DNA of 64,000 bases from Hyphomicrobiaceae bacterium (lineage in GTDB: Bacteria; Pseudomonadota; Alphaproteobacteria; Rhizobiales; Hyphomicrobiaceae): positions 14,322 through 78,321 of the forward strand of contig JBFWOB010000030.1 of assembly GCA_050250755.1 (NCBI GenBank), read 5' to 3'. Below, in pieces: positions 33,423 to 59,072 of the stretch (its first letter is position 1; the number at the start of each line of letters is the position of its first letter). The translations under genes were made by a program, and so were the position numbers. The notes below the pieces were generated by a model. It was given only the letters and a program-made list of their open reading frames with translations, did not search any database and had not been told where the DNA came from.

Positions 33423-33541
33423 CTGAAGAACACATATTTCGCCAGCGCAGCGATAATGAGGGCGAGGACGATAACCGCCAGCAGACCGCCGAGCCCCATG
33501 CCCCACACCATGCCCGTTCCGTCCATCATGCGATCCATCAT
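33419..33541 (-). CDS. 40-aa Met/Gly-rich small membrane protein (below the ORF-track cutoff)
   Basis: Manual translation gives MMDRMMDGTGMVWGMGLGGLLAVIVLALIIAALAKYVFFR. ATGA overlaps the cusA stop at its start and the next gene's ATG at its stop. Confidence 0.45.
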   Translation of the reverse strand: MMDRMMDGTGMVWGMGLGGLLAVIVLALIIAALAKYVFFR

Positions 33542-36500
33542 GACGTAAGCCCCTCCTTCTGACGGACGGCGGCAGTGGCTCGGGTGAGCCGTGCCCCTTT
33601 GATCAACGCGTAGATGGCTGGAATGACGATCAATGTCAAAACGGTGGAGGACGCCATTCCACCGATCATCGGAACCGCGATGCGCTGCATCACTTCAGAG
33701 CCGGTGCCGTGACTCCATAGGATCGGCACAAGACCCGCAATGATGGCGATCACCGTCATCATCTTAGGGCGCACGCGCTCGACTGCACCCTCCATTATGG
33801 CGACGGTAAGATCAGAGCGCGTAACAGCGCGGCCTTCCGCGAGTGCCTTTCGCTTCTGATCCTCCCAGGCGTGGTCGAGATAGATCAGCATGATGACGCC
33901 GGTTTCGGCAGCAACGCCGGCCAATGCGATGAAGCCGACGGCGACTGCAACGGACAAGTTGAAGCCCATCCACCACATCAGCCACAGGCCGCCCACCAGC
34001 GCGAACGGCAGCGACAGCATGACAATCAGCGCTTCCGTCATGCTTCGAAAATTGAGGTAGAGCAGCAATAGGATGATTAGCAGTGTCAGCGGTACTACAA
34101 TGGCGAGACGCTTCTTTGCCCGCTCGTAGTACTCGTACTGTCCGCTCCACACGGCAATGTATCCGGGTGGGAATATTACCGCGGCAGCGACCGCATGCTT
34201 GGCGTCGGCAACATAGCTGCCGAGATCACGCTCGCGGGCGTCGACGAAGATATAGGCAGCAAGTTGAGCGTTCTCGGTGCGGATTGAGGCCGGGCCCCGC
34301 ACGAGACTGATCTTGGCCACTTGTCCGAGTGGAATAGAAGCGCCGTTGGGGAGCGGCACCAGTGCTTCTTGCGCCATTGCTCGGGGGTCCGAGCGCGTAT
34401 CGCGGGGATAGCGGACGGTGACGCCATAGCGCTCGCGGCCTTCGACGGTTGTCGTGACCGTTTCAGCGCCGATGGCCGATGACACCACCTGCAGTACATC
34501 CGCGACTTTTAGCCCGTATCGGGCAAGCTCGAGCCGGTTCGGCTCGATATCAAGGTAGTAGCCACCGATGATGCGCTCAGCAAACGCACTCGACGTCCCT
34601 GGCACTGTCTTGATGGCGGCCTCGATCTGGCGCGCGAGCGTTTCGATGACCTTGATGTCCGACCCGATGACCTTGACCCCGACGGGAGTGCGGATGCCGG
34701 TTGCCAACATGTCGATGCGTGCCTTGATCGGCATCGTCCAAGCGTTCGAAACACCGGGAAACTGAAGCGCCTTGTCCATCTCCTGAATTAGCTTGTCGAT
34801 GGTCATGCCCGGACGCCAATCCTCCTCAGGCTTCAAGTTGATCACGGTCTCGAACATCTCTGTTGGCGCTGGATCGGTAGCGGTCGCGGCGCGGCCCGCC
34901 TTGCCGAACACGCTTTCGACTTCGGGGAAGGTCTTGATGATGCGATTCTGGATCTGCAGCAGGTGAGCTGACTTGGTGATGGAAAGCCCGGGCAGCGTTG
35001 TTGGCATGTACATGATCGTGCCCTCGTTGAGATTGGGCATAAACTCGGAGCCGAGCTTGGTGGCAGGCCAAATGCTTCCTGCGAGGATGAACAGGGCAAT
35101 GCCGATCGTGAGTACTTTTGCCTTTAGCACGCCACGGATGATCGGCCGGTAGAGCCAAATCAGGGCACGGTTGATGGGGTTCTTGCGCTCTGGAACGATG
35201 CGCCCACGCACGAACACCGCCATCAGCGCTGGCACTAGCGTAATGGAGAGCAACGCAGCGGCAGCCATGGCGAAGGTCTTCGTCCAAGCGAGCGGCTTGA
35301 AGAGAAGGCCCTCCTGCGCTTCCAACGCAAAGATCGGTAAGAACGAGACAGTGATGATGAGGAGAGAGAAGAACAGCGACGGGCCAACCTCGCTCGCCGC
35401 CTCAATCAGCGCCTCCATCCTCGGCTTATTGGGCGGCGCGCGCTCCAGATGCTTGTGAGCGTTTTCTATCATCACGATGGCCGCATCGATCATGGCGCCA
35501 ATGGCGATCGCGATGCCGCCGAGACTCATAATGTTGGATGAAATGCCCAAGCCCCACATGCAGATGTAAGCGATTAGGATGCCGCACGGCAGTGTAATGA
35601 TAGCGACCAGGGCGCTACGGGCATGGAGAAGGAATACGAAACAAACCAGAGCCACGATCAGACTTTCTTCGATCAGCGTCGTCTTAAGCGTGGCAATGGC
35701 GCGGTGGATCAGCTCCGAGCGGTCGTAGACTGGCACGATCGACGTGCCCTTAGGGAGGCTGTCCTTAATCTCGGCCAACCGCTTTTTAATGCTGTCGATT
35801 ACGGATAGGGCGTTCTGTCCGTAGCGCTGAATGGCGATACCGGATACGACCTCACCCTCGCCATTTAACTCGGTGACGCCGCGCCGCTCGTCAGGCGCCA
35901 ACTCGACCCGCGCCACGTCTTTGATAAGCACCGGCGTGCCGCTTTGCGCCCTGAGGACAATATTCTCGATATTGGCAATGCTTTTAAGATAGCCGCGCCC
36001 CCGCACCATGAACTCGGTCTCGGCCAATTCCACCACCCGGCCGCCGACGTCCATGTTGGACTCGCGGATAGCGCTGCGCACCTCCGACAAGGGAATATTG
36101 AATGCGCGCAGCCGGCGCGGATCGACAACAACAGAATACTGCCGCACAAAGCCGCCGACGCTTGCGACCTCAGCCACACCCTCCGCCTTTGCGACGGCGA
36201 AGCGCACCTGCCAATCCTGCGTCGTGCGCAGCTCAGCGAGGTTCCTCTTTTCGGCCATCACGGCGTATTGGTAGACCCAGCCTACACCGGTCGCGTCGGG
36301 CCCGAGCGTCGGTACGACGCCTTGCGGCAGCGTTCGCGCTACGCCGGACAGATATTCGAGCACGCGGGAGCGCGCCCAGTAAATGTCGGTGCCTTCCTCG
36401 AAAATGACGTAGACGAACGAGACGCCAAAGAACGAGAAACCTCGCACCACCTTCGAGCGCGGCACCGACAGCATCGCCGTCGAAAGCGGATAGGTGATCT

Positions 36501-36690
36501 GGTCCTCGATTACCTGCGGTGCCTGTCCAGTGTATTCCGTGTAGATGATGACCTGCGTGTCTGAAAGGTCCGGAATGGCGTCGAGGGGAACGTTGGTGAC
36601 GGCATAAACCCCGGCGCCGGTCGCAAAGACTGCCGCGATCATGATCAGCACCAGATTGGTGGCCGACCAACGTATGATACGCGCGATCAC
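33538..36690 (-). CDS. cusA: CusA/CzcA-family heavy-metal efflux RND pump
   Basis: 1050 aa. 12-TM RND layout with two large periplasmic loops. HME-RND-like segment GGIAIAIGAMIDAAIVMIENAHKHLE. Confidence 0.9.
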   Translation of the reverse strand: MIARIIRWSATNLVLIMIAAVFATGAGVYAVTNVPLDAIPDLSDTQVIIYTEYTGQAPQVIEDQITYPLSTAMLSVPRSKVVRGFSFFGVSFVYVIFEEGTDIYWARSRVLEYLSGVARTLPQGVVPTLGPDATGVGWVYQYAVMAEKRNLAELRTTQDWQVRFAVAKAEGVAEVASVGGFVRQYSVVVDPRRLRAFNIPLSEVRSAIRESNMDVGGRVVELAETEFMVRGRGYLKSIANIENIVLRAQSGTPVLIKDVARVELAPDERRGVTELNGEGEVVSGIAIQRYGQNALSVIDSIKKRLAEIKDSLPKGTSIVPVYDRSELIHRAIATLKTTLIEESLIVALVCFVFLLHARSALVAIITLPCGILIAYICMWGLGISSNIMSLGGIAIAIGAMIDAAIVMIENAHKHLERAPPNKPRMEALIEAASEVGPSLFFSLLIITVSFLPIFALEAQEGLLFKPLAWTKTFAMAAAALLSITLVPALMAVFVRGRIVPERKNPINRALIWLYRPIIRGVLKAKVLTIGIALFILAGSIWPATKLGSEFMPNLNEGTIMYMPTTLPGLSITKSAHLLQIQNRIIKTFPEVESVFGKAGRAATATDPAPTEMFETVINLKPEEDWRPGMTIDKLIQEMDKALQFPGVSNAWTMPIKARIDMLATGIRTPVGVKVIGSDIKVIETLARQIEAAIKTVPGTSSAFAERIIGGYYLDIEPNRLELARYGLKVADVLQVVSSAIGAETVTTTVEGRERYGVTVRYPRDTRSDPRAMAQEALVPLPNGASIPLGQVAKISLVRGPASIRTENAQLAAYIFVDARERDLGSYVADAKHAVAAAVIFPPGYIAVWSGQYEYYERAKKRLAIVVPLTLLIILLLLYLNFRSMTEALIVMLSLPFALVGGLWLMWWMGFNLSVAVAVGFIALAGVAAETGVIMLIYLDHAWEDQKRKALAEGRAVTRSDLTVAIMEGAVERVRPKMMTVIAIIAGLVPILWSHGTGSEVMQRIAVPMIGGMASSTVLTLIVIPAIYALIKGARLTRATAAVRQKEGLTS

Positions 36691-38120
36691 GGGTTCGTCT
36701 CATTGGCGGAAGGAGTAGGCGGTGCGGCCTCGAAGGAAGCGGCCGTGAAGGCGGACAGCGCGGCCTTCAAGTTGCTCTCGGCATCGATCAGGAAGTTGGC
36801 GGCGACGACGACATTTTCGCCGGCTTTGATACCTTCGATGATCTCCACATTGCCATCACCTCTGGCGCCCACTTTAACAGCGCGTGGTTCGAAGCGGCCT
36901 TCACCACGATCAACGATCACTACCTGGCGATTGCCGCTGTCAATGAGTGCCGAGACCGGCACGACGAGACGTTCAGCCTCGCCCTCGCCCGCATTGATCT
37001 CCACATCTGCGAACATCTCGTGCTTGATGCGATGATCGGGATTGCCGACCTCGATGCGCACTTTGGCCGTGCGCGTCGCCATATCGAGCTCGTGTAGAAT
37101 GAAGGTGACGGTGCCGGTGAATATTTCGCCAGGGAAGGCACGGAAGCTTACTTTAGCTTTCGATCCCACGCGTACCTGTCCAATATCTTGCTCGGCAACG
37201 TCGGCAATGACCCAGATCGAGGAAAGATCGACGAGCCGCAGCATCTCCTCTCCAGCTTTGATCATCATGCCTTCGATTACATTCTTCTGCATGACGACGC
37301 CGGAGACGGGCGAAGGCCAGTCAAATGAGATAACTGGCTCGCGCGTGCGCTTGAGCTCGTTTATCACGGCCTGCGGAAGCTGCAGGTTCGAAAGGCGCTG
37401 AAGCGCGCCCGCGTCATCGCGATTGCCGGATGCATTGGTCGAGATGCGGTAGTCGACTTGCACCTTGACCATGTCGGGACTGTAGACACGGAACAGTGGC
37501 TCGCCCTTCTTTACGTGGCGACCCGTCTCGTTGACGTAAAGTTTTTCGATGAAACTGTCGGCGCGTAACGCAATGGTGAGGAGCGTACGCTCGTCGGGCT
37601 TGGCGACACCTGGTGCCCGAATCGGCCGCACCAAACGGCGCATTACCGCAGGCTCCGACCGCACACCCGCATGCTGGATCTTCGCAATGCTGACTTTGAC
37701 GGTATTGCCGTTGTCTTCCTCGCCTTCGTAGACGGGAATGTAGTCCATCCCCATCCAGTCTTTCTTCGGGACCGGCGAGGTGTCTGGCAGTCCCATCGGA
37801 TTGCGGTAGTAGAGCAGCTTGCCTTTTCCCTTGGGCGCCGGCGGCGTTGCCTCAGCACTCCCGATCGTGGGCTCCTCTTCGTCGTAAACAGGCAGATAGG
37901 CGCGACCATCGGAGGTCTTCTTAGGCGATGGCGCGAAATCCGCCTCGCCATCGGGGTGCTTCCAATAGAGAACCTTGCGCCGAGCGACGGGACGATCTGA
38001 GACGGTACCCGTAGGAGCGACTTGCCTCCCGAGGAGCCAGAACCCGGCACCGGCGCGATATCCGCCGACGATGCCGAGGAGGGCCGCTGCCAGAGCGACC
38101 CCGAGGATGGTGCGGGACAT
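36687..38120 (-). CDS. cusB: Efflux RND periplasmic adaptor (CusB-like)
   Basis: MFP/HlyD-type barrel-sandwich. Two N-terminal metal-binding-type repeats (YWKHPDGE; YYRNPMGLPDTSPVPKKDWMGMDYIPVY). Overlaps cusA. Confidence 0.85.
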   Translation of the reverse strand: MSRTILGVALAAALLGIVGGYRAGAGFWLLGRQVAPTGTVSDRPVARRKVLYWKHPDGEADFAPSPKKTSDGRAYLPVYDEEEPTIGSAEATPPAPKGKGKLLYYRNPMGLPDTSPVPKKDWMGMDYIPVYEGEEDNGNTVKVSIAKIQHAGVRSEPAVMRRLVRPIRAPGVAKPDERTLLTIALRADSFIEKLYVNETGRHVKKGEPLFRVYSPDMVKVQVDYRISTNASGNRDDAGALQRLSNLQLPQAVINELKRTREPVISFDWPSPVSGVVMQKNVIEGMMIKAGEEMLRLVDLSSIWVIADVAEQDIGQVRVGSKAKVSFRAFPGEIFTGTVTFILHELDMATRTAKVRIEVGNPDHRIKHEMFADVEINAGEGEAERLVVPVSALIDSGNRQVVIVDRGEGRFEPRAVKVGARGDGNVEIIEGIKAGENVVVAANFLIDAESNLKAALSAFTAASFEAAPPTPSANETNP

Positions 38121-47976: not shown

Positions 47977-50900
47977 TCACCGAAAATCCCGCGATCGGAA
48001 TCCCGCGTCGTGCTTCCGGATATCGCGCGGGTCATGGCCTGGGTTCTTGATGTGGTCCGCGCGGGCCAGCGGCGGGTCGATGCCGTTCCGGTCGGCAAGC
48101 GTGTGCAGGTGATGGCTGAGGTCAACCAGGCGCTGCGCGACGACGTGAATGACGATGCCTTCCCGCTGCAGCAACCCTTCCACGCCGAGCAGCCTGGCGC
48201 CCATCACCACTCTACGAAAACGCTCGAACACCTTCGGCCAGACGATGATGTTGGCGATGCCGGTTTCGTCCTCGAGGGTGGCGAAGATCACGCCGCTGGC
48301 GGTTGCAGGGCGTTGCCGCACCAGAACGACGCCCGCCACTTTCAAACGGCGGTTGTTCGGCCGGGTCGCGAGGTCCTTGCACGGGACGAAACCCATGCCC
48401 GCCATGTCACCGCGCAGCAGGGCCATGGGGTGAGCTTTGAGCGACAGGCGCAGGGTTTCGTAGTCGGTGACCACGTGCTCGCCGAGGGTCATTTCCGGAA
48501 GCTGGGCATCCGGCATCTCCAACACTTCGTCCTCGCCGCGATAGGCGAACAGCGGCAGGGGCGGCGCATCGGGCAGGGCTTTGGCTTCCCAAAGCGCTTC
48601 CCGCCGGTCGAGGCCGATGGAGCGGAACGCATCCGCTTCCGCCAGCCTGATGAGGGTGGCCGCGCGCAGCTTGGCACGGCGCCAGAGCTGCCGGAGGTCG
48701 GAATAGCCGTTGCCCCGCGAGGCGAGGAGGCGTTCAGTTTCTGCGCCCGCTAGGCCAGAGACCTGGCGCAGGCCGAGCCGCACGGCGAAACGGGATTGCG
48801 TATCCGGTGCCGGCTCCAGCGTGCAGTCCTGTTCGGAATGGTTCACATCGACGGGGAGGACGTGAACGCCATGGTCGCGGGCGTCGCGCACGATTTGGGA
48901 AGGCGCGTAGAAGCCCATGGGCTGGCTGTTGAGGAGCGCGCAGGCAAACGCGGCCGGATAGTAGTGCTTGAGCCACGCTGATACGTAGGCGAGTTGGGCG
49001 AAGCTGGCGGCATGGCTTTCGGGGAAGCCGTACTCGCCGAACCCTTCGATCTGGTTGAAGCAGCGCTCAGCGAAGTCCGCCTCGTAGCCGTTGCGCGTCA
49101 TGCCGTTGATGAACTTCTCGCGGAAAGTGTGGATGGTGCCGGTATGCCGGAACGTCGCCATGGCACGGCGCAGGCCGTCGGCTTCGTCGGGCGTGAACCC
49201 GGCGGCCACGATAGCGATCTTCATCGCCTGTTCCTGGAAGAGGGGCACCCCCAGTGTTTTGCCCAGCACCTCCTTCAGCGCCGGGGAGGCGTAGGTGACG
49301 GGCTCCTGGCCGCAGCGGCGGCGCAAGTAGGGGTGCACCATGTCGCCCTGGATGGGGCCGGGACGGACAATGGCCACCTCGATGACCAGGTCGTAGAAGC
49401 AGCGCGGCTTGAGGCGCGGCAGCATGGTCATCTGCGCGCGGCTTTCGACCTGGAACACGCCCACCGAATCCGCATTGCACAGCATGTCGTACACGGCGGG
49501 GTCGTCCTGCGGCACGGAGGCGAGACCGTAATCCTCGCCGTAGTGCTGCCGGATGAGGTCGAAGGCCTTGCGGATGCAGGTGAGCATGCCGAGCGCCAGC
49601 ACATCCACCTTCATGAGCCGCGCCGCCTGCAGATCATCCTTATCCCACTCGATAACTGTCCGTTCGGCCATGGCCGCGTTTTCGATGGGAACCAGTTCAG
49701 ACAATGGTCCGCGCGTGATGACGAAGCCGCCCACGTGCTGCGACAGGTGGCGCGGAAAACCCACCAGTTCGCGCGCCAGCGAGAGCACCATGGCAAGGCG
49801 GGGATCGTCCGGGTTCAGGCCGCCTTCACGCGCCTGGCTGTCCGTGGTGACCGCGCCGTGCGACCCCCAGATGCCTTTGGCCAGGCCACCAACGACATCC
49901 TCCGACAGCCCCATCGCCTTGCCGACATCGCGCACGGCGGACCTGCCCCGGTAGCTGATGACGGTGGCAGCCAGCCCGGCGCGGTCGCGGCCGTACTTAT
50001 CGTAGATGTATTGGATCACCTCCTCGCGGCGCTCGTGCTCGAAATCCACGTCGATGTCCGGGGGTTCGTTGCGTGCCGCCGAGATGAACCGCTCGAAAAG
50101 CAGGTCGTGATGGGCGGGATCGACGGAGGTGACGCCGAGGCAATAGCACACGGCGCTATTGGCGGCCGAGCCCCGGCCCTGGCAGAGGATGCCCCTCCGG
50201 CGGGCAAAGCGCACGATGTCGTGCACGGTGAGGAAATAGGGCGCGTAATTCAGTTCCGCGATGAGCGCCAGTTCGTGTTGGATGGCGGCCTGCACCTTCT
50301 CCGGCATGCCCTCGGGATAGCGCTCGCGCACGCCGATGCGGGTGAGGTGCTCCAGTTCCTGCTGGGGTGTGCGGCCCTCCGTGGTCACTTCGATGGGGTA
50401 TTCATAACGCAGCTCGTCGAGGCTGAACCGGCAGCGTTCCGCGATGTCCACGGTGCGCGCTACGGCCTCCGGATGATCCGCAAACAGCGCCGCCATCTGT
50501 TCGGGCGCTTTCAGATGGGCTTCCGCGTTCGGTGAGAGGCGGTATCCCGCCTGGTCGATGGTGCAATGCTCGCGGACGCAGGTGACCACATCGTGCAGCA
50601 GCTTCCGGCGGGGGTGATGGTAGTGCACGTCGTTGGTGGCGACCCATGGGGTTCCGCATCTGTTGGCAAGCTCCGCCAGCTGCGCCAGTTGCGCCTTGTC
50701 GTTGCCGCGAAAGCGGTGCGCGCCTGCGAGGTAGGCGCGGCCGGGGAACGCTTCGGCAAGCCGCGCGAGAATGGCCGCCAAGCCATCGGCGCCGTTCGGC
50801 GCTGCCGGATTGCGGGCAAGCCCGTGGTCGCCGGGTAGGGCAAGGACGATCTGCCCTTCGGCGTATGCCAGCACGTCATCGAGGTTCAGCCAACACTCCC

Positions 50901-51219
50901 CCTTGGGTGCGCGGCGGCGGCCGATGGTGATGATCCGGGACAGGCGGCCGTAGGCTTGGCGGTCGGTGGGATAGATCAGCAGGCTCGGCGCATCCTGCAA
51001 ATCAAGCCGCGCGCCGACCACGAAGCGAATGCCTGCCTCCTTCGCGGCAGCGTGAGCACGCACGATGCCTGCCAGCGTGTTGCGGTCGGTGATGGCGAAC
51101 GCCTTGAGGCCGAGAGCAGCCGCCGTCACTGCCAGTTCCTGCGGATGCGAGGCGCCGCGCAGGAAGCTAAAATTGCTGGTGATTTGCAGTTCGGCGTAGG
51201 CTGGAATCACACGCGGCAC
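47977..51219 (-). CDS. dnaE2: Error-prone DNA polymerase III alpha-like subunit
   Basis: 1080 aa. N-terminus YAELQITSNFSFLRGASHPQEL (PHP domain) and C-terminal ...SRDFR are typical of DnaE2/ImuC rather than DnaE1. GTG start. Confidence 0.9.
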   Translation of the reverse strand: MPRVIPAYAELQITSNFSFLRGASHPQELAVTAAALGLKAFAITDRNTLAGIVRAHAAAKEAGIRFVVGARLDLQDAPSLLIYPTDRQAYGRLSRIITIGRRRAPKGECWLNLDDVLAYAEGQIVLALPGDHGLARNPAAPNGADGLAAILARLAEAFPGRAYLAGAHRFRGNDKAQLAQLAELANRCGTPWVATNDVHYHHPRRKLLHDVVTCVREHCTIDQAGYRLSPNAEAHLKAPEQMAALFADHPEAVARTVDIAERCRFSLDELRYEYPIEVTTEGRTPQQELEHLTRIGVRERYPEGMPEKVQAAIQHELALIAELNYAPYFLTVHDIVRFARRRGILCQGRGSAANSAVCYCLGVTSVDPAHHDLLFERFISAARNEPPDIDVDFEHERREEVIQYIYDKYGRDRAGLAATVISYRGRSAVRDVGKAMGLSEDVVGGLAKGIWGSHGAVTTDSQAREGGLNPDDPRLAMVLSLARELVGFPRHLSQHVGGFVITRGPLSELVPIENAAMAERTVIEWDKDDLQAARLMKVDVLALGMLTCIRKAFDLIRQHYGEDYGLASVPQDDPAVYDMLCNADSVGVFQVESRAQMTMLPRLKPRCFYDLVIEVAIVRPGPIQGDMVHPYLRRRCGQEPVTYASPALKEVLGKTLGVPLFQEQAMKIAIVAAGFTPDEADGLRRAMATFRHTGTIHTFREKFINGMTRNGYEADFAERCFNQIEGFGEYGFPESHAASFAQLAYVSAWLKHYYPAAFACALLNSQPMGFYAPSQIVRDARDHGVHVLPVDVNHSEQDCTLEPAPDTQSRFAVRLGLRQVSGLAGAETERLLASRGNGYSDLRQLWRRAKLRAATLIRLAEADAFRSIGLDRREALWEAKALPDAPPLPLFAYRGEDEVLEMPDAQLPEMTLGEHVVTDYETLRLSLKAHPMALLRGDMAGMGFVPCKDLATRPNNRRLKVAGVVLVRQRPATASGVIFATLEDETGIANIIVWPKVFERFRRVVMGARLLGVEGLLQREGIVIHVVAQRLVDLSHHLHTLADRNGIDPPLARADHIKNPGHDPRDIRKHDAGFRSRDFR

Positions 51220-51257: not shown

Positions 51258-51272
51258 GAACAAACATGGAAC
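51258..51272. promoter_or_regulatory. Alphaproteobacterial-type LexA (SOS) box
   Basis: GAAC-AAACATG-GAAC (GTTC-N7-GTTC on the coding strand), about 40 nt upstream of the dnaE2 start. Confidence 0.6.
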
Positions 51273-51340: not shown

Positions 51341-54300
51341 TCATTGCTTTGCTTGCCGCGCCAGTATCATAAGCCGGTCAAAGGGCGTGGTTCGTTCCAG
51401 ACCCGGTTGTGCCTGCTTGATCTGTTCGAGAACTCTGAGCAGGTCACCAAGTGGATGGCGAGGCGTTTTGGGCACAATTGCATCCAGTAACTGCAGTGTT
51501 TCCCTGGGGAATAAGGAGGGCAATTTGGATTTTCCAAGTTTTCGACAAAGGTAATGGAGATGCTCAATCGGACACAGCAAAGGTTCAGCCATCCTGAAGG
51601 CAGCGGGAAACTGGTCGTCTGCCGCGATGGCGAGATTGGCAAGCGCCTCAGATAGCGGTGCGGAGGTAATGCGGATTTCTTTCGGCCATGTTCCACGCCA
51701 AAAAGGCGCGATGCGATTGGTCCAATAGTCCGCTTTTTTATCCGCGGCAGCGCCGATGGCGTTGGCCAAAGTTCTGGTGACCTCGATAAGCCCTTTCTCT
51801 GGAAAGACTGAAAGTGCTTCTGCTATGTTAGGAAAGGTATAGCCCTCGATGAGGTCCAGGCCGGCGTAAGTCAAGAGCTGGGCATAGATTCGCGCCGCCT
51901 GCGGATCGAGCTCAGCGTAATGTCGAGCCGTCTCAAGAAACGCGGGCTTTATAGCGATCATAAGTGGTTTATAGAGACGCGCTGACCAGAGAAAGCCCTC
52001 CCAGGCTGGTTTAGCGCGATCAGAGTGCGTCCAGCCAAATAGTAGCAGCAGGTGGTCATGAGTCCAGTCTGGATCCGCGCGAAACAGGGACACGGCCTGA
52101 GCGGCAGCAATGACGATACCGAATAGAAATGGCCGACCGTTGGCGGAAAGGACCCTTTCGAGGATGGCGCGAATATCTGCGGGCAGACCTTGGCCGTCCT
52201 TTGGATTTCCGGCCAGCCAATAATTGAGGATGGCCTGAGTTATGTGGCCCACCGGATGATTGATGGCGGCATCCACATAGCGCGTCGTTTCATTATCCGG
52301 ATGACGACTTGCCAACACGTGCTCACAGAGTGAAAAAAAGATGCGTTGATGCGGGTGAACTGACCGCGCCGCACCTTCAAGCCAACATGATATGGCCGCG
52401 GCACAGTGGCTTCGGACATCGTTGGGCATACGGTCGATGATGGGCGCGAAGTAATACCAGGTGCGCCGCGGCAAGCGCTTTTCGGACCAGCTGTAGAATG
52501 CCGCGCGCCAGCGGTCCTTGAGCCAGACTCCTCTGTCCGCCAGATCGGCAAGGGCGCATCCGGCCTGCAAAGGATGCTTGCGGCAGGTCTCGGGCCAAGT
52601 GTCGTCGTAAAGGATGGATGTCTTTTCCGGGCGTTCCTTCATCAGCCACCCGACGAGTTCCCGCCGCTTCGTGGGAGCAAAATCAATTTGGCGTTGATCT
52701 TCAAAGTCAGGATCGCCGGTCCCGCTCATCCAAGAGATGAATTCATTGCGTTCGTGTTCGCGCACCTGCTGCCATCCGCCGAACCCGGCCGGGGGTGTGG
52801 CAAGCAGGGCCAGCGACGCGGCGCCGAGGGGTGCTTCATCACTCATAAGCTTGCAAAGCCGCAGGTATTTTCCGCGATTGACGATTCCCCTCCATTCCGC
52901 TGCTGACAGATCTCGGCGATACATCCACCGCGGAGGCCCTTTGTGAATTGCGATCTCCAGCCCGGTGCGCAGTTGCTGGGAGAGAGCTGGTCCCTGCTGG
53001 ACGAACAAGCGCAACACCTCGCGATGGGTATCCACACTCCAAAGCCACCAGCCGTCATCAGCAATCAAATGGTCGACCCATTCAGCCGAAGGGATACCGC
53101 CGTAGCTCGCCGCAAAGAGCGCGAGACGCGTGAAAGTAGGATAGGGAACGCTGAGCCAGTGCGTGGCTACGGCCGCGGCGCGGTCACCGTCGGCTTTTTG
53201 CACGGCAAGCCATGCATCGCGCACCAGTTCAATCAATATCACCCAGTCTTGGAAGCCCCTGTTTTGCCAATGTGGTTCGATGGAGGGGAGGTTCCAGCGG
53301 GAATCATCGAACTGCGGCGAAGCGGCGCCGACATCCCGGGCAATGTCCAGGGCATCTTTCAGGAGCGTCTCGAATTCGGTGAGCAGCGCGGGGAGTGCGG
53401 CTGACCATTCCTCGGTCGAGCGCAATTCATCAAGAGCGCTGCCGGCGTGGTCACACGCGAGCACCAGTTTACAGGCGACATCGGCCTTCAGTTGATCTCT
53501 GTCGGAAGAGTTAGCAGGAAGCTCCGCATGTGGACCACGCCGCGCTCTGGAGATGGAGATTCTTGGGGCAAGAATATCGCGAAGTTGCAACCGCATGCCG
53601 GTGGTCAAGCCCGTCCGCTTGAGTTGTTTGCTCCAGGTGAAGAAATCGGCATCGAAGCGTGGCGACCTGACCCTTCCTTCAAGCAAATGGCGCCACAGCG
53701 TGCGCATTTGCGCGGTGGGAATGGAGCGAGGAGATTCATTCTGAAGTGCGGTCAGTTCGTGCGTGTTGCCCGCATGCTCAAGATCATCGATGCGATCGAG
53801 TGCGCGTCCGATATCCCAAGCAAAGGCATCGTGAAGGACGGCGCCGCTTTCAACGGCCCAAAGAAGCAAGGAAGGATCACCCAGGTACCTCAGAAGCCAG
53901 CGGGCGAGATGAGACATGACGTGGTCCCATCTGCTCTGGCGGTGTTGATGGGTAACGACTGTCATCCATGGTGCATGAGTATGAGGTGCGGGACGCGCCA
54001 ACAGGCTGTAGCTCAGCGTTTCGTCCTCGGGCGGCGGAGCCGGTATGCCGAACCTGGACAGATCGCGGTGACCGAAATCCTGCTTCGAGAAGGCGCCAAG
54101 CCAGTCCAATGGCGGCGGTGGTGAAAGGTCCGCAAATCGCATCGCGGGCAATCCGGATTGATGAGTCAGCGCCCAAATCATGCGTCCGACAAAGTCATCC
54201 TCGCGGGTGCTAAGGCTGGGGCGGGCGGAGGCGTGCTTGACAACGATGGCCTCCTTGCCGCTGACGCCATCGATATAAGTTTTGGCCCATTCCTGCAGGG

Positions 54301-55150
54301 TACGATGCATTGCCCCGTGATTGTCTGCCCGGTTGTAGAGAATCGGTGTCACCCCCTTAGCCGTCCATTGGGTTGTCTCAATGCTTTCCTGGCCGGGCGA
54401 GTACGCTCCAAAAGCGTAAGCCTGCGGAGTTGTTTCGCCGAGCCGACGATCCGCGGCCAGGGCGTCCATCATGTAGCGCAGGACGGGGTCGTTGATGCTA
54501 TAGCCGACGAAACACACGATGTAGTTGGCCAGCAACTCACTGACGAACCGCGCTGCCCATCGTTCGGTAAGATAAGCCAAACCAAAGTCGCCGCTTGTGA
54601 TGATCAAGCGGTTCAAGTCCATGGCGTCATCGACGCGCTTGGGCAGCTTGCCATGGAGGTAGACGAGGCCATTCCAGCGGCTTGCCTTTGGGATGGGCAG
54701 GGACGGCGCCAAGCAGGAGTTGAACGCAACCTTGAACCGCTTCCCCGCACGGTCAAACAGCTCGTCGAAGTTGGTTGTGACAAGCCGCAAGGAGCCGTCT
54801 GAGACCCGCCCCAGCCGCAGTAAAGCTTGATGGGTATCGAGAGCCCCCACCCGACGCCATTTCGGCTTTAGCGCCTGCTGCAGTGCCTTATGAAGCGTGA
54901 GGCGCTGGCCGGGCAGGCGGCGCTCAAGAAGATCCAGAGCGGTGTCGTACTGCTCCGAATCCAAGGCGCTTTTTTCCGCTGCCAAGGGTGACGTGCCTGT
55001 GATCTCGAAAATGCGCGTCACGAGCTTTGCGAAGCTCGGCAGGTCGGCCGGGTATGAAATGCCGGCCCCGCAAAAGAAGACGACCTTCCCCTCTTCGTGG
55101 GCATCAAGCAGGAGTTCAGGAATGTCGGGGCCGTTGGCAATAAACTGCAT
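51341..55150 (-). CDS. SIR2-like domain fused to ~1000-aa uncharacterised domain (DSR-like)
   Basis: N-terminal motifs VVFFCGAGIS, LVTTNFD, VYLHGK and CFVGYSINDP. The remainder is helical and W/L/R-rich with no nameable motif. Confidence 0.8.
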   Translation of the reverse strand: MQFIANGPDIPELLLDAHEEGKVVFFCGAGISYPADLPSFAKLVTRIFEITGTSPLAAEKSALDSEQYDTALDLLERRLPGQRLTLHKALQQALKPKWRRVGALDTHQALLRLGRVSDGSLRLVTTNFDELFDRAGKRFKVAFNSCLAPSLPIPKASRWNGLVYLHGKLPKRVDDAMDLNRLIITSGDFGLAYLTERWAARFVSELLANYIVCFVGYSINDPVLRYMMDALAADRRLGETTPQAYAFGAYSPGQESIETTQWTAKGVTPILYNRADNHGAMHRTLQEWAKTYIDGVSGKEAIVVKHASARPSLSTREDDFVGRMIWALTHQSGLPAMRFADLSPPPPLDWLGAFSKQDFGHRDLSRFGIPAPPPEDETLSYSLLARPAPHTHAPWMTVVTHQHRQSRWDHVMSHLARWLLRYLGDPSLLLWAVESGAVLHDAFAWDIGRALDRIDDLEHAGNTHELTALQNESPRSIPTAQMRTLWRHLLEGRVRSPRFDADFFTWSKQLKRTGLTTGMRLQLRDILAPRISISRARRGPHAELPANSSDRDQLKADVACKLVLACDHAGSALDELRSTEEWSAALPALLTEFETLLKDALDIARDVGAASPQFDDSRWNLPSIEPHWQNRGFQDWVILIELVRDAWLAVQKADGDRAAAVATHWLSVPYPTFTRLALFAASYGGIPSAEWVDHLIADDGWWLWSVDTHREVLRLFVQQGPALSQQLRTGLEIAIHKGPPRWMYRRDLSAAEWRGIVNRGKYLRLCKLMSDEAPLGAASLALLATPPAGFGGWQQVREHERNEFISWMSGTGDPDFEDQRQIDFAPTKRRELVGWLMKERPEKTSILYDDTWPETCRKHPLQAGCALADLADRGVWLKDRWRAAFYSWSEKRLPRRTWYYFAPIIDRMPNDVRSHCAAAISCWLEGAARSVHPHQRIFFSLCEHVLASRHPDNETTRYVDAAINHPVGHITQAILNYWLAGNPKDGQGLPADIRAILERVLSANGRPFLFGIVIAAAQAVSLFRADPDWTHDHLLLLFGWTHSDRAKPAWEGFLWSARLYKPLMIAIKPAFLETARHYAELDPQAARIYAQLLTYAGLDLIEGYTFPNIAEALSVFPEKGLIEVTRTLANAIGAAADKKADYWTNRIAPFWRGTWPKEIRITSAPLSEALANLAIAADDQFPAAFRMAEPLLCPIEHLHYLCRKLGKSKLPSLFPRETLQLLDAIVPKTPRHPLGDLLRVLEQIKQAQPGLERTTPFDRLMILARQAKQ

Positions 55151-55293
55151 GACATTGCCCTCAGCAAGTTAGCTCGTGCCCGCATGCATATGGGGGTGAT
55201 TCGCCCTGTTGCGGATGGTGAGTGTGGGTGGGAGGGAGGAGAGAGGCAACAACGCAGCCTCCATTGATCCAACGGGATGCAGAACGGTCGGTG

Positions 55294-56325
55294 TTATCGG
55301 CGGCCGGTCCCGTCCCAAACAGGCAAGCGATCCACGTCCTCCGTCTGAACATCTTCCCGCCGTCCGTCGTAGAGTTTCGTGGTGACCACCGAGGAGTGGT
55401 TGGCCAGCCTCCGCGCTTCCTCCATCATTCCCCCGGCGTTCAGGAACTCCGTAATCCCCGTCGCCCTAAAACTGTGGTTGGTGATGCCCTCGATGCCCAG
55501 CTTACCGGTGCGATGCTTCACCATCTGGTAGCAGACCATGTTGGTGACGGGTTTGGCGGTGAGCAGCTTGCGGCCCTTGTCCCATTTGCGGAACAACCAG
55601 CCCTCCGGATTGGGCTCGCAATCCTTGGCGGGATGGGTGGAGCGCCCGAGATACTCGCACAGGTACTGCTCAAGCATCGGATGACAGGGCACCTTGTGAA
55701 TCTTGCCACGCTTTTCCTGCAGCCTCAGATGCAGGCGGCCGCCCGTCCGGTAGAGGCTGCGGTGCCTCAGCTTGCACACCGCGCCCACGCGGGCGCAGCT
55801 GTAAGCCATTACGGCGATGATGGCGCGGTCGCGGAGGTCACGCAGGTTGTCGGTGTCGAAGCTAGCCAGCAGGCGCGACATGTCGGCAAATTTGAGCTGC
55901 AACGCGCGCCCGGTGTTCTCCGAGTCATCGGATACCTTGAGGTCCAGGGTGGGATTGGCGGGAATGGCGCCGCCGCAGACCAGCGCTTTGAAATAGCCAC
56001 GCAGACAGGCCAGCGTTTGCGCCCTGGTCCGTGGCGACAGGTCGCCTTTTTGGGGCGCCTGACGGACGCGTTGCAAACCCTTGACGTAGTTGCTGAGGTG
56101 CGTGGGCGTAAGGTCGGCAAGGGATGCGAATTCTCCGTGCTCCGCCCATTCCAGAAACGCCCTCAGGATGCGGAAATAGGCCTCCGCGGTGAGCTTGTTG
56201 CGTTGCTTGCTGAAAAACGAGCGGGTGAGCTCCGGCGCCTTGGGGTGGGTGGCGTAGAGAATATCCGGCAACCAGCCGTCAATTTCCCGCTGCAGGTCCG
56301 ATGCGTCCATAACCGACACTGCCAT
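55294..56325 (-). CDS. Tyrosine recombinase / integrase
   Basis: 343 aa. AYSCARVGAV...HSFRATGITE...TTKLY matches the R..HxxR..Y signature. Confidence 0.85.
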   Translation of the reverse strand: MAVSVMDASDLQREIDGWLPDILYATHPKAPELTRSFFSKQRNKLTAEAYFRILRAFLEWAEHGEFASLADLTPTHLSNYVKGLQRVRQAPQKGDLSPRTRAQTLACLRGYFKALVCGGAIPANPTLDLKVSDDSENTGRALQLKFADMSRLLASFDTDNLRDLRDRAIIAVMAYSCARVGAVCKLRHRSLYRTGGRLHLRLQEKRGKIHKVPCHPMLEQYLCEYLGRSTHPAKDCEPNPEGWLFRKWDKGRKLLTAKPVTNMVCYQMVKHRTGKLGIEGITNHSFRATGITEFLNAGGMMEEARRLANHSSVVTTKLYDGRREDVQTEDVDRLPVWDGTGRR

Positions 56326-56340: not shown

Positions 56341-56736
56341 TTAAATATAATGTCGATTATGTTTCGTTTTGTGAGAGGGGGGTGTGTTTTCGCAGCAAAC
56401 CGCCAACTGCTCCCCATCGCCCTGATTACCGCGCGTGTTCACCCATTCGCCGGGCACCCCGAGCGGGCATCGGGGGGCGGGATAGCGGCCGACCTTCGCG
56501 TTCCAATACCTCCATGCGCGGGCGGGGATGATGCCCGGCGGTGCCTGGTCGATTGCAGCTGCGAGGCCTTCCAGACCGATGTGTTCCAACAGCAGCGCCA
56601 TGTCCTCATCCGTTGAGGCCTTCATGGCATACGCCATCAGCTCGATGGGCTGGGCAAGGCTTTCTTCCGGCGGCTTGAACCATACGATCCGGCGGGCAGC
56701 ACGAAGGAATTCCGGCGTTTGCGGAAACGGCCTCAT
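56341..56736 (-). CDS. Hypothetical protein
   Basis: 131-aa ORF with plausible composition and no motif. Confidence 0.4.
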   Translation of the reverse strand: MRPFPQTPEFLRAARRIVWFKPPEESLAQPIELMAYAMKASTDEDMALLLEHIGLEGLAAAIDQAPPGIIPARAWRYWNAKVGRYPAPRCPLGVPGEWVNTRGNQGDGEQLAVCCENTPPSHKTKHNRHYI

Positions 56737-56982
56737 CGATCACCATTCCCATCACGATGTCGGCGCGCTGTCCGTTTCAGGCTCGGCAGCCGCAACGGGT
56801 CCACGGCGACTGCCGCTTTCACAAGCGGTTTTAGGAGCGGTCAGTGTGGCTGACCCCGATGGGCAGCCGCGCACATCGAAGCTCAGCACCCATATAGCGA
56901 AATTCAGGTCCCAGAAGCACGGCGATCTCATCGAGAACGAATATCAGACCGGGTGCCCAAGGAGGGACAGGGACAATTGCCA

Positions 56983-57252
56983 TCAATAATGAAATTGGTC
57001 ACGCTTCGCGTCATAAGCCTCCACCAGATCCTTCCAATTCAAGAATTCCGTGTGCTTGTCACTGCCTTCCGGTGCGCCTTCCAGCAATTCACACCGACGC
57101 TCGACTTCACGGGCCAGTTCGTCAGCAGCCTCCACGAATTCGCGGAAACTCTCGCCTCCGGGCAGGTCTTGCCAGGCGCCGAACCTCCAGACCGCGCCCG
57201 CTGCCTGCAAGGCCTTTACCGCCGCATACCGCATCCGGTCGAGGTCACTCAT
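56983..57252 (-). CDS. Hypothetical protein
   Basis: 89 aa from ATG 57252 (MSDLDRMRY). Overlaps the upstream stop by 8 nt. Confidence 0.4.
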   Translation of the reverse strand: MSDLDRMRYAAVKALQAAGAVWRFGAWQDLPGGESFREFVEAADELAREVERRCELLEGAPEGSDKHTEFLNWKDLVEAYDAKRDQFHY

Positions 57253-57550
57253 TGATGAACTCCTTGTCCACTGCGTCACTCCTCCGATCCCAACTGCCGC
57301 CGGTAACAAGGCGCGGGCGCCATGCGCAACGCTTCTCGAGGCGATGCTCCACAAGAATGGCCACAAACACTTGGCTGCGGGCTTTGCCCACGAATAACCG
57401 CTCGTCGTCGATCATGCCTTTGAGGAACCCCCGGAATGGCCCCTTGACCGCTTCGGTGCGTTGGAACGGAACGACACAATCGGCCTGCATCAGCGACCAC
57501 TCCGACGTCCAGTCCGCCCCCAAAACCAAGCTGATATAAACCGAAGCCAT
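57245..57550 (-). CDS. Hypothetical protein
   Basis: 101 aa from ATG 57550 (MASVYISL). Confidence 0.35.
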   Translation of the reverse strand: MASVYISLVLGADWTSEWSLMQADCVVPFQRTEAVKGPFRGFLKGMIDDERLFVGKARSQVFVAILVEHRLEKRCAWRPRLVTGGSWDRRSDAVDKEFINE

Positions 57551-57812
57551 GACCACGCTGCGCACGTTCACCTCCGCGCACGGATTTGCCGCCGATCGCT
57601 GCGTTGCGCGATACAGGCGGGACTGCCGCGGCTCAGGCCAGCGCAGCCACAATTCCTCCCTGGTCCGGCGGCAAACCCTTCGTGCCGGGGCCGCGAAACG
57701 CATCCTTCCCGGAGGGTGTGGGCCCGACTATCCCGAACAGGGCCCCTGCCCCGGCGCCCTTCGCGCCGTTCATTCCGGTGCCTGGACAGCGCGTTTTCGG
57801 ATGTAATGCACA

Positions 57813-58190
57813 CTACAAATCGTTGGCGCACCGGGCTTGCTCCATTCTTCTCTTCAAGCTTTTCAGATTGCGCGCGGATACGTCCCCGGCTTCCCGGATA
57901 AGCGGCTGGTGCGTGCGCGACACCAACCGCGGCACATACCAGCGCTGCGGATAGCGCCCGAGCATCACGACATCGTCTTCCAGCAGCTCGCGCAGCATGC
58001 GCACGCGCCGTTTCATGTCTGCTTCCAATTGCGCGGCCTGCGCGCATTCATCCGCCTCGATGCGCTTTTCGACATCGCCATGCTCCAGAAGAAAAACCAC
58101 CAGGAGACCGCAAAAGGCCGCCCACACCCAGAACGCCCGTTTTTTTGCGGGGACGGGTGGGTCCCCATTCATCTTCTCGCTTCCCTTCAC
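57813..58190 (-). CDS. Hypothetical membrane protein
   Basis: One TM helix (FWVWAAFCGLLVVFLL) followed by a charged helical tail. Confidence 0.4.
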   Translation of the reverse strand: MKGSEKMNGDPPVPAKKRAFWVWAAFCGLLVVFLLEHGDVEKRIEADECAQAAQLEADMKRRVRMLRELLEDDVVMLGRYPQRWYVPRLVSRTHQPLIREAGDVSARNLKSLKRRMEQARCANDL

Positions 58191-58508
58191 CCGCGCACCC
58201 TCACGCCGACCCGATCCCGGCCGCGCCGGCGGCCGGTTCGCTGAAGCTCATCCGGTTCAATCAATGGGCACCCGGAGGTGATGCCTCCGGAAAAGGCTCC
58301 GCGGCGCAAACCCCAACGCCGCGGAGCGTGACCCTTACCCTCGTCGGGCCACCACCGCACAATACCAGACGGTACACCGTCATTTGTGATGCGTTCCCGC
58401 CGTTTTCTCGCCGGGAATAAGGCGGTGTCGCGCAGTTGCAGCACTGCATCACCGCATCGCGCGATCCTTCCGTGCAAATTTGACGGGCGGCGCGTGCCTC
58501 CGCACGCT

Positions 58509-59072
58509 ATGGGGACGAACGAAAGCTGCCGTGTGAGCCCCGATGCGCCGCGTCACCCATCGCCGCGCCGAAAGGCGGTCAGCGTTCTCCTGGAGCGCGC
58601 CAACGCCCGCTTCCATGAAATACTGCGGCGGACGGACCCGAACCTGTTCGCCTGCGGTGGAGACGCTGCTGCGGAACCCGTGCCACTTCGCGAAATCGTG
58701 GACGCGGTTAACTTCGTCGGCCAGTGGCCGTCGCGTATCCTTCAGTCCAGCCGGTTGCCCCGCTCCCTCACGCATGTCCGGCAGACAACGGCCCTGATGG
58801 CCGTTTCGCTGAGCAGCGAGAACCCCCGCACCATCGCCCATCAACTCGGCCGGTTCGACCGGTCGGCCATCGTTCTCGGTGCCAGCGCCGCCCGGAAGCG
58901 CCTCGAGAGAGGAGAGCAACCCAGCCTGGATCTGTTCACGGCCGCCCTTGTCGTGCTGATGCGCTCTTATCCGACGGCGCATGTCCATCTCGACAGCGCG
59001 CTTCGGCAATGTGCGTCCGACACGCTTCTTCGCCATGCGAATGCGCAATCATCGGACGCACGTGGCGTTTAA
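58509..59072 (+). CDS. DnaA domain-IV-like HTH protein
   Basis: LREIVDAVN...SSRLPRSLTHVRQTTALMAVSLS...IAHQLGRFDRSAIV resembles the Bac_DnaA_C pattern. Both frame and start are uncertain. Confidence 0.4.
   Translation: MGTNESCRVSPDAPRHPSPRRKAVSVLLERANARFHEILRRTDPNLFACGGDAAAEPVPLREIVDAVNFVGQWPSRILQSSRLPRSLTHVRQTTALMAVSLSSENPRTIAHQLGRFDRSAIVLGASAARKRLERGEQPSLDLFTAALVVLMRSYPTAHVHLDSALRQCASDTLLRHANAQSSDARGV

Follow-up and report, generated by a model that had tools for sequence, protein, structure and literature searches.

The locus considered here carries a single long gene for a SIR2-domain protein, and the question that it raises is whether this protein belongs to a known family of antiphage sirtuins or represents something new. 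The stretch of DNA analysed as a whole, 64,000 nucleotides in length, is referred to below as the window. An earlier note had described the product as a giant protein resembling the defence-associated sirtuins DSR1 and DSR2, with about 1000 amino acids of unassigned sequence, and had suggested that it might define a new subtype. The sequence comparisons described below indicate, with a probability of about 0.85, that the gene is dsr1, encoding defence-associated sirtuin 1, and that it is complete and, to all appearances, functional; antiphage defence of this kind needs only the one protein. The features of the locus are summarized in Table 1.

Table 1. Positions of dsr1, its domains and its neighbours within the window.
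Feature	Position	Strand	Basis
dsr1 coding sequence	51341..55150	-	Open reading frame list and translation; 1269 aa plus stop codon; ATG start
Ribosome-binding site GAGGG	55158..55162	-	Read from the sequence; 7 nt ahead of the dsr1 ATG
N-terminal SIR2 NADase domain (putative), ~aa 1-290	54281..55150	-	Pfam SIR2_2; phmmer to KomC
Gly-rich NAD-binding loop VVFFCGAGIS, aa 23-32	55055..55084	-	Aligns to the Gly loops of KomC and sirtuin-3
Asn127 codon (TTNFD)	54770..54772	-	46/46 sequences; aligns to KomC TTNYD
His166 codon (YLHG)	54653..54655	-	46/46 sequences; aligns to KomC His146
C-terminal sensor (predicted), aa 291-1269, all-alpha solenoid	51344..54280	-	AF2 model, Foldseek, family alignment
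Tyrosine recombinase/integrase, 343 aa	55294..56325	-	Pfam Phage_integrase and Phage_int_SAM_1; PHROG 1 integrase, E = 4e-31
dnaE2 error-prone polymerase	47977..51219	-	NF004225, 1505.7 bits (cutoff 939), and Pfam domain set
GTTC-N7-GTTC LexA-box-like site in the dsr1-dnaE2 spacer	51258..51272	-	Exact pattern match; 38 nt before the dnaE2 start

Assignment to the Dsr1 family

The NCBIfam equivalog model for Dsr1 (NF041818.1) matches amino acids 1-1264 of the window protein over positions 1-1262 of its 1263, with a score of 1646.7 bits (cutoff 1400 bits). Scoring against the PADLOC families also gave Dsr1 (PDLC02183), at 1579.3 bits and over the full length (amino acids 1-1266 on profile positions 1-1272 of 1275), and the PHROG 15208 profile scored 1323.6 bits. 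The Escherichia coli chromosomal Dsr1 WP_001159683.1, a different entry from the experimentally tested EcDsr1 (WP_029488749.1), aligns end to end and colinearly, with 49% identity and 64% positives over amino acids 1-1266 and 22 gap positions. Homologues are numerous (n = 3712), and nearly all of the 120 listed are 1256-1304 amino acids long. The N-terminus of the window protein, MQFIANGPDIP, is identical to the family consensus.

By the criteria of these curated models, the protein classes as Dsr1 proper. The core of the earlier reading, that of a single-gene, SIR2-domain protein like the defence-associated sirtuins, was right and indeed understated, since the models point to Dsr1 itself. The PADLOC Dsr2 models gave no match at E ≤ 1. 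Dsr1 is already known, and the window gene is a fairly divergent further member. In annotation it should be labelled dsr1, anti-phage defence-associated sirtuin, instead of hypothetical SIR2 protein.

The SIR2 domain and its catalytic residues

Pfam SIR2_2 matches amino acids 123-270 (E = 3.3e-20), and phmmer aligned residues 13-264 to the SIR2 NADase KomC (PDB 8zsf; E = 4e-5). The four motifs quoted in the earlier note are all present at the residues given there, namely VVFFCGAGIS, LVTTNFD (amino acids 123-129, containing N127), VYLHGK (163-168, containing H166) and CFVGYSINDP (213-222). The nucleotide range that it had attached to the glycine-rich loop, 55055-55069, corresponds exactly to GAGIS within the full motif.

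Conservation in homologues extends to both of the catalytic residues that had been proposed: all 46 sequences compared have N127 and H166, as well as D129, D188 and D221, and for N127 these include an outgroup with 26% identity. In the loop, 45 of the 46 retain G28, G30 and S32; the Agrobacterium Dsr1 is the single exception, its annotated sequence (1194 amino acids) having nothing aligned with the loop. H166 corresponds to the catalytic His146 of KomC, which is mutated in PDB entries 9xvc (H146N) and 8zsi. Across the SIR2 region as a whole (about amino acids 1-290), identity to relatives is 67%.

Structure was predicted in two parts, the SIR2 portion and the sensor portion. The AF2 model of the SIR2 portion was poor (pLDDT 63), and a fold search with it placed the SIR2 domains of DSR2 and KomC on top, all at non-significant values (E ≥ 0.02, the best PDB match being a DSR2 SIR2 domain at E = 0.02). 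A SIR2 fold for amino acids 1-290 is therefore supported by sequence, not by predicted structure.

The C-terminal sensor

The tail of about 980 amino acids, previously described as unassigned, is identifiable by alignment as the conserved Dsr1 sensor. It is colinear with the Dsr1 family and contains many invariant tryptophans among dozens of invariant residues, and in published work the region has been assigned to the Avs7 type of helical-repeat sensor, triggered by the phage major capsid protein (PMC13581612). The AF2 model of this part has a mean pLDDT of 81.4 and consists of helices almost throughout. The tail had also been called Trp/Leu/Arg-rich: relative to neighbouring proteins, Trp (3.9% vs 1.3%) and Leu (12.1% vs 9.7%) are indeed elevated, while Arg (8.4% vs 8.2%) shows no enrichment.

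A profile of the sensor retrieved 4085 clusters, and the best 150 matches all have the Dsr1 architecture, with the sensor occupying everything past about residue 350 in proteins of ~1250 amino acids, or are shorter sequences with the sensor part alone. A sensor-only tblastn search of plasmids gave one match lacking SIR2 annotation, an IS-flanked fragment in Enterobacter with no visible effector. Foldseek matched the sensor model to generic HEAT/ARM solenoids alone (the PP2A A subunit and importins, TM 0.2-0.27), with no specific relative. Searches of PDB sequences with the single protein, a full-length profile and the sensor profile returned no Dsr1 or Avs7 structure; the sensor profile gave 0 matches at E ≤ 10, and the Salmonella SeAvs7 entries (9YIX, 9N01 and 9N00) were not encountered in either of the two PDB sets searched.

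Proposed mechanism

Several properties of other Dsr1 proteins have been described. Dsr1 lowers NAD+ upon infection (Garb et al. preprint), and this can be overcome by NARP1, a phage pathway for NAD+ reconstitution. The sensor of EcDsr1 is reported to be homologous to that of Avs7, and the major capsid protein was the only trigger of EcDsr1 in a 73-gene screen (2026 Nature paper; PMC12803255, PMC13581612). This trigger is an HK97-fold major capsid protein, and activation by capsid protein has been shown for EcDsr1 alone, with the capsid protein of phage ZL19. Mutations in the effector domain abolish trigger-induced toxicity and defence, according to an excerpt of PMC12803255 that does not state which of two proteins was mutated.

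By analogy with these proteins, the SIR2 domain of the window Dsr1 would be held inactive in uninfected cells. On infection, the helical sensor would bind a phage structural protein, and this binding would turn on the SIR2 domain, leading to hydrolysis of NAD+ to ADP-ribose and nicotinamide. Falling NAD+ would then keep the phage from replicating, whether or not the cell itself stopped growing. We infer that the window protein may deplete NAD+ and protect against phage in this manner. Its description as an NAD+-depleting abortive-infection protein agrees with other Dsr1 proteins as regards NAD+; the abortive part needs care, because when Dsr1 was tested in Bacillus subtilis the depletion was only transient and the culture did not collapse.

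Genomic context

The gene had been reported to lie directly after an integrase, and a tyrosine recombinase is indeed found 143 nt upstream. This recombinase is XerC/D-like but scores far under the XerC/D cutoffs. GC3 is 0.64 in dsr1, compared with 0.80-0.82 in the integrase, dnaE2 and ietAS genes; its composition marks dsr1 as foreign cargo, lying beside the recombinase gene of an alphaproteobacterial genome. Seven homologue loci with visible flanking genes were inspected, and the neighbours differ in all of them; they include an integrase, type I restriction-modification genes, SNF2 with PglZ, RnlA and SocA toxin systems, and plasmid leading regions. Thus, dsr1 is a single-gene system with no conserved partner. 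The integrase and dsr1 were considered as a co-moving module, an idea that was rejected, since the integrase beside the window dsr1 is unrelated to the one beside dsr1 in E. coli.

The surrounding region is patchy and horizontally acquired, and also contains an IS110 transposase and a metal-efflux cassette. Positions 33538..38120, considered as an imuA-imuB-dnaE2 cassette, instead encode a CusAB-like RND efflux pair. An IetAS-like pair lies just past dnaE2, 3.6 kb from dsr1, and the pair and dsr1 together identify this stretch as defence cargo, in an alphaproteobacterial lineage that has been little sampled. A search for flanking direct repeats that would delimit an island gave nothing convincing, the window contains no tRNA gene, and Rfam found nothing over 43500-64000. 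No empty site was found, and the nearest genome with a dnaE2 homologue (a Dongiaceae MAG, 69% identity) has only dnaE2 and one HTH-rhodanese gene in common with the window.

Divergence and alternative explanations

The window Dsr1 lies on a long branch: its nearest relative, among those listed, is 53% identical, and it shares 51% identity with relatives that are ~70% identical to one another. In the C-terminal third (amino acids 901-1269) these values are ~40% and ~66%, no sub-region has a closer relative, and GC3 drops from 0.72 at the 5′ end of the gene to 0.49 at the 3′ end. Such features are what would be expected of a Dsr1-family protein whose sensor has diverged to a class of trigger other than the major capsid protein, and hence of a functional new subtype, although we consider this quite unlikely given the full colinearity of the alignment and the retention of 254 of the 267 positions invariant in 39 relatives (95%), some of them in the C-terminal third, with the 13 changes mostly conservative. 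A score above the equivalog cutoff, and a tree in which Dsr1 proteins from an E. coli plasmid, Pantoea and Agrobacterium all branch deeper, likewise speak against the earlier suggestion of a new subtype. As the family, at E ≤ 1e-30, comprises at least 1258 clusters at 50% identity, and thousands overall, divergence of this level is ordinary, within the spread of proteins that PGAP names Dsr1. Furthermore, Avs7 recognizes its target by broad shape complementarity to a conserved capsid fold, in which point changes are tolerated, so sequence drift need not alter the class of trigger. The lower identity of the C-terminal third does mean that trigger specificity is not confidently transferable from other Dsr1 proteins. 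The most likely reason for its divergence is adaptation to the capsids of the phages that attack this host, rather than a change of mechanism. It is unlikely that the low-GC3 lobe (amino acids ~900-1269) was acquired or reshaped for a non-HK97-capsid trigger, or for capsids that core-clade Dsr1 misses; if this were true, the protein would be a natural specificity variant, of use in working out how targets are recognized by the Avs7/Dsr1 sensor. As a deep-branching Dsr1 with its conserved positions largely kept, the protein offers a possible comparison point in studies of sensor specificity, and it poses no new mechanistic question.

Other explanations set the gene further apart from an active Dsr1. 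A decaying or inactive passenger copy might be expected in such a patchy, transposase-containing region, and a sigma-70 promoter scan at dsr1 detected none, the scan being uninformative for an alphaproteobacterial host. This is very unlikely, in view of an uninterrupted frame of 3810 nt with a good ribosome-binding site, the retention of all catalytic residues, and the occurrence of the identical protein on five contigs from several samples. Because the family-invariant positions are so largely kept, the window Dsr1 looks functional. Proximity to dnaE2 raises the idea that the gene encodes a protein deacylase, acting as a sirtuin-like housekeeping regulator with a functional tie to the SOS polymerase. 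As had been noted earlier, dsr1 sits before an SOS-boxed dnaE2: the polymerase gene begins with a GTG at 51219, 121 nt downstream on the same strand, and no terminator is predicted between the two. The box, of a form that we take to be the alphaproteobacterial SOS box, belongs to dnaE2, not to dsr1, and gives the polymerase gene its own LexA-type site downstream of dsr1. Moreover, the protein has a negligible match to the canonical deacylase sirtuin model (NF001752, 11 bits), neither dsr1 nor the window integrase has a homologue within 10 kb of dnaE2 across 80 loci from other genomes, and dsr1 homologues are found in unrelated mobile and defence contexts, which leaves a tie to dnaE2 with almost no probability. 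Equally little can be given to a DSR2-, ThsA-, SIR2-HerA- or Avs5-type system in place of Dsr1. In its favour are the common SIR2_2-type chemistry and weak PADLOC matches to ThsA (E = 5.4e-5, amino acids 17-247) and LmuA (E = 3e-6), both on the SIR2 part, and DSR2 led the non-significant fold matches noted above, whereas DSR2 PDB chains match at the Gly loop only (amino acids 15-50, E ~0.2) and are absent from the top 50 Foldseek matches of the sensor. Nor was any significant full-length match found to the DSR2, ThsA, SIR2-HerA or Avs5 families: neither the protein nor its neighbours contain a SLOG/STALD, HerA or STAND NTPase domain, no TIR gene lies nearby, the adjoining genes are the integrase and dnaE2 rather than a HerA-type ATPase, and Pfam, NCBIfam and PADLOC results include no NTPase domain.

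Comparison with known systems

ThsA of type I Thoeris, SIR2-HerA and Avs5 resemble the window protein in having a SIR2_2-type NADase effector, and differ from it in their SLOG/STALD domain, HerA partner or STAND NTPase. KomC, the SIR2 NADase of the Kongming system, provides the SIR2 domain of known structure that is nearest in sequence, and its Gly loop, TTN(F/Y)D motif and catalytic His align with those of the window Dsr1. In contrast, KomC is a stand-alone effector of 264 amino acids with no sensor tail, and acts in a multi-gene system activated by a nucleotide signal. DSR2 of B. subtilis (PDB 8WKT, 8WYC and others) is likewise a single protein that joins an N-terminal SIR2 NADase to a long C-terminal sensor of alpha-solenoid form, and it too is switched on by a structural protein of the phage; this is the tail tube protein, and DSR2 is shorter, at ~1000 amino acids.

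For the sensor, the relevant comparison is with Avs7, a STAND NTPase antiviral receptor (Salmonella SeAvs7) whose sensor is reported to be homologous to that of Dsr1 (PMC13581612). The Avs7 sensor, a helical repeat in two lobes, wraps around the HK97-fold capsid protein, and both Avs7 and Dsr1 respond to the major capsid protein; the window protein has neither the STAND NTPase nor the Cap4 nuclease, and its effector is SIR2. Dsr1 itself (Gao et al. 2020; EcDsr1) is in the same length class (~1270 amino acids), with an N-terminal SIR2 domain and a helical sensor of ~950 amino acids. Although the window protein comes from an uncultured Rhodospirillales-like alphaproteobacterial host and is set apart from the core clade by its long branch, most clearly in the C-terminal third, it aligns with Dsr1 from end to end, has the same invariant catalytic residues and, as in E. 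coli, is encoded as single-gene cargo adjoining an integrase.

Assignment of the SIR2-domain protein to the Dsr1 family

The 1269-aa protein encoded by the window is Dsr1 itself, beyond a mere likeness to the DSR proteins. The earlier note had called it defence-associated-sirtuin-like, a reading that holds and is understated, as curated Dsr1 models match it nearly end to end. Residues 1–1264 align with positions 1–1262 of the 1263 in the NCBIfam equivalog profile NF041818 (‘anti-phage defense-associated sirtuin Dsr1’), at 1646.7 bits where the curated cutoff is 1400, and the PADLOC Dsr1 model PDLC02183 gives 1579 bits across residues 1–1266. A chromosomal Dsr1 of E. coli, WP_001159683.1, is carried by 76 of the 5426 complete genomes of that species; in BLASTP the window protein matches it across residues 1–1266 at 49% identity (64% positives), with 22 gap positions. 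When 5.8 billion proteins were searched, 3712 homologues were recovered; among the 120 listed, almost every one has 1256–1304 aa, and NCBI gives the name Dsr1 to several. PHROG 15208, labelled as function unknown, is the same family. On each feature that could be settled computationally the protein agreed with Dsr1, and identification as DSR2, ThsA, SIR2-HerA, or Avs5 was rejected, since it lacks a defining feature of each. The automatic NCBI pipeline would give the gene its correct name.

The open reading frame is real, and the four motifs originally quoted in support of a SIR2 domain all lie at the residues claimed for them (Table). The Pfam SIR2_2 domain is found at residues 123–270 (E = 3.3e-20). 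The C-terminal ∼1000 aa had been regarded as an unassigned sensor region; this does not survive alignment with the family, in which the tail is colinear with Dsr1 and has dozens of invariant positions, Trp at many of these, and is therefore the conserved Dsr1 sensor. It is helical, Leu-rich, and Trp-rich as described (3.9% Trp compared with 1.3% in the proteins of neighbouring genes), but the proposed enrichment in Arg was not found.

Table. Features of dsr1 and its surroundings in the window.
Feature	Position	Strand	Remarks
IS110 transposase	31872–32942		accompanies the long ORF pair
Long ORF pair	33538–38120		CusA/CusB-like RND efflux system
LexA-box-like site	44039–44053	+	28 nt ahead of ietA-like ATG
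ietA-like AAA ATPase	44082–45122	+	PADLOC IetA, 231 bits
ietS-like S8 subtilase	45177–47726	+	PADLOC IetS, 90.7 bits
dnaE2	47977–51219	−	error-prone polymerase
dsr1 ORF	51341–55150	−	ATG, 1269 codons and stop
VVFFCGAGIS	aa 23–32		GAGIS portion exactly nt 55055–55069
LVTTNFD			includes N127
VYLHGK			includes H166
CFVGYSINDP	aa 213–222		
Ribosome-binding site GAGGG			7 nt upstream of dsr1 ATG
int	55294–56325	−	343-aa tyrosine recombinase
Five small ORFs	56341–59036	−	131, 89, 106, 125, 195 aa; upstream of int, same strand

Integrity and structure

Among 39 relatives, 267 alignment columns are invariant, and the window protein retains 254 of them; its 13 departures are mostly conservative. The catalytic Asn and His proposed earlier, N127 and H166, do not vary across the 46 sequences compared, and neither do D129, D188, and D221; the comparison includes a 26%-identical outgroup and the deeper-branching annotated Dsr1 proteins. 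An identical protein is encoded by five contigs from several samples. From these retained columns, catalytic residues, and identical copies we conclude that dsr1 is subject to the constraints that act on its family at large.

Structure was predicted in two parts. The model of the sensor (aa 291–1269) is usable, with a mean pLDDT of 81.4, and consists almost entirely of helices with one small beta element. Its matches in the PDB were generic HEAT/ARM solenoids (PP2A A subunit, importins, CAND1) with TM-scores of 0.2–0.27; DSR2 was absent from the top 50 fold matches, and no Dsr1 or Avs7 structures were found in the PDB copies searched. The model of the SIR2 part is poor (pLDDT 63, with the catalytic region below 50) and its fold search was not significant, with the SIR2 domains of DSR2 and KomC at the top of the list, so that assignment of the SIR2 fold rests on sequence and not on the model.

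Divergence within the family

The earlier note raised the possibility of a different trigger or a new subtype. The long branch behind this suggestion is genuine: the window protein is 51% identical to each of the 39 relatives, which average 70% among themselves, and the gap is largest in the C-terminal third (40% compared with 66%). A closer relative was looked for in each sub-region of the protein and none was found. Furthermore, GC3 falls steadily along dsr1, from 0.72 (codons 1–200) to 0.58 (1001–1200) and 0.49 (1201–1269), in parallel with the region of greatest protein divergence, especially 51341–52150. The C-terminal sensor lobe could have a mosaic origin; no donor lineage for it was found.

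A separate subtype does not follow from this branch length. The equivalog cutoff is cleared, and in a neighbour-joining tree the protein branches inside the span of PGAP-annotated Dsr1 proteins, with those of an E. coli plasmid, Pantoea, and Agrobacterium branching more deeply (37–51% identical to others). Run against 50%-identity representatives, a profile of the sensor only matches 4085 clusters, of which 2941 reach E ≤ 1e-10 and 1258 reach E ≤ 1e-30; the best 150 all have the Dsr1 architecture. Since thousands of such clusters exist, an identity of ∼50% to the nearest relative is ordinary within the Dsr1 family. A trigger class different from that of other Dsr1 proteins, to which the divergent C-terminal third, the lack of a closer relative, and the GC3 gradient would lend themselves, is in our view improbable against this background.

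Genomic context

As initially described, dsr1 lies between an integrase gene, int, 143 nt upstream and dnaE2, 121 nt downstream. The latter scores 1505.7 bits on NF004225 (cutoff 939). Its best match among species representatives is from a Dongiaceae MAG (69% identity), and the next matches are alphaproteobacterial, many of them Rhodospirillales. The SOS box reported for dnaE2 is present as a GTTC-N7-GTTC site, which we take to be the alphaproteobacterial LexA box, 38 nt ahead of the start. No imuA or imuB was found beside dnaE2 in the stretches of the window checked, and dnaE2 stands alone; an imu-like cassette was considered for the long ORF pair and rejected, as this encodes an efflux system.

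On its other side, dnaE2 is bracketed by an IetAS-like antiphage pair, for which NCBIfam IteA scores 200 bits, under its cutoff of 510. A second exact GTTC-N7-GTTC site precedes this pair. The window has four such sites compared with 1.78 expected by chance, and four were reached in 7 of 100 shuffles; SOS control of the defence pair is possible.

GC3 is lower in dsr1 (0.64) than in any other local gene (0.80–0.82 for int, dnaE2, and ietAS), which fits horizontal acquisition. Neither PHROGs nor NCBIfam gives a match for the five small ORFs, and Pfam and PADLOC give none for the 131-aa ORF, the one of the five searched there. They are kept with the integrase and dsr1 on other contigs and may be the remaining cargo of an integrative element. 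The window is the reverse complement of contig JBFXIC010000016.1 (assembly GCA_050176365.1). Two independent Logan metagenome contigs with an identical dsr1 (L002 and L003) both end exactly 164 nt beyond the dsr1 stop codon, with 42 nt of dnaE2 included (window ∼51177). This common assembly break may mark strain-level variation at the junction of the island and dnaE2.

Elsewhere, dsr1 homologues are found in a range of mobile and defence surroundings. In E. coli the gene comes immediately after a prophage integrase; other homologues overlap the end of a type I R-M S gene, lie between an SNF2 helicase and PglZ, neighbour RnlA and SocA toxin systems, or belong to the leading regions of plasmids. 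The integrases next to dsr1 in the window and in E. coli are unrelated; a shared int-dsr1 module was rejected, and the pairing reflects cargo position in integrative elements. At two unrelated loci (L087 and L091, both 6001–6013) the upstream gene, an SNF2 helicase at one and a type I R-M specificity subunit at the other, overlaps the start of dsr1 by 13 nt, which suggests that dsr1 commonly lies within restriction or BREX-like operons and is translated together with them. The L087 protein (P0004), 53% identical to the window protein, is among its nearest Dsr1 relatives. Like the window with its IetAS-like pair, L087 carries an AAA and S8 pair, here a short way upstream of the SNF2-dsr1-PglZ cluster. 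On an Enterobacter hormaechei plasmid (NZ_CP056156.1, locus L092, 4848–6668), a 606-aa ‘hypothetical protein’ lies between two IS3 elements. Its match to the window protein is confined to the sensor part (24% identity, E = 2e-13); it has no SIR2 domain and probably represents the truncated sensor of a Dsr1- or Avs7-like gene.

Comparison with characterized systems

In the phmmer alignment with KomC, a SIR2 NADase of solved structure, the TTNYD motif of KomC pairs with N127 and its His146 with H166; His146 is the residue mutated by the depositors in PDB 9xvc (H146N) and in the 8zsi variant. Garb et al. cloned a Dsr1 in B. subtilis and found that infection by phi29 led to NAD+ depletion, which was transient and occurred without collapse of the culture. 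Dsr1 is defeated by the phage NAD+-reconstitution pathway NARP1 (Osterman et al.). By homology to other Dsr1 proteins, residues ∼300–1269 of the window protein would be expected to sense capsid protein, upon which the SIR2 domain would hydrolyse NAD+. In the work of Lee et al. (preprint PMC12803255; Nature 2026, PMC13581612), the Dsr1 sensor is described as homologous to that of the STAND receptor Avs7, AlphaFold3 models share a bilobed, sharply bent helical-repeat architecture, and major capsid protein is the sole trigger of EcDsr1-mediated cell death in a 73-gene library of phage ZL19. In SeAvs7, the sensor wraps around the HK97-fold capsid protein, relying on broad complementarity of shape and charge, and its recognition of the capsid withstands point mutations.
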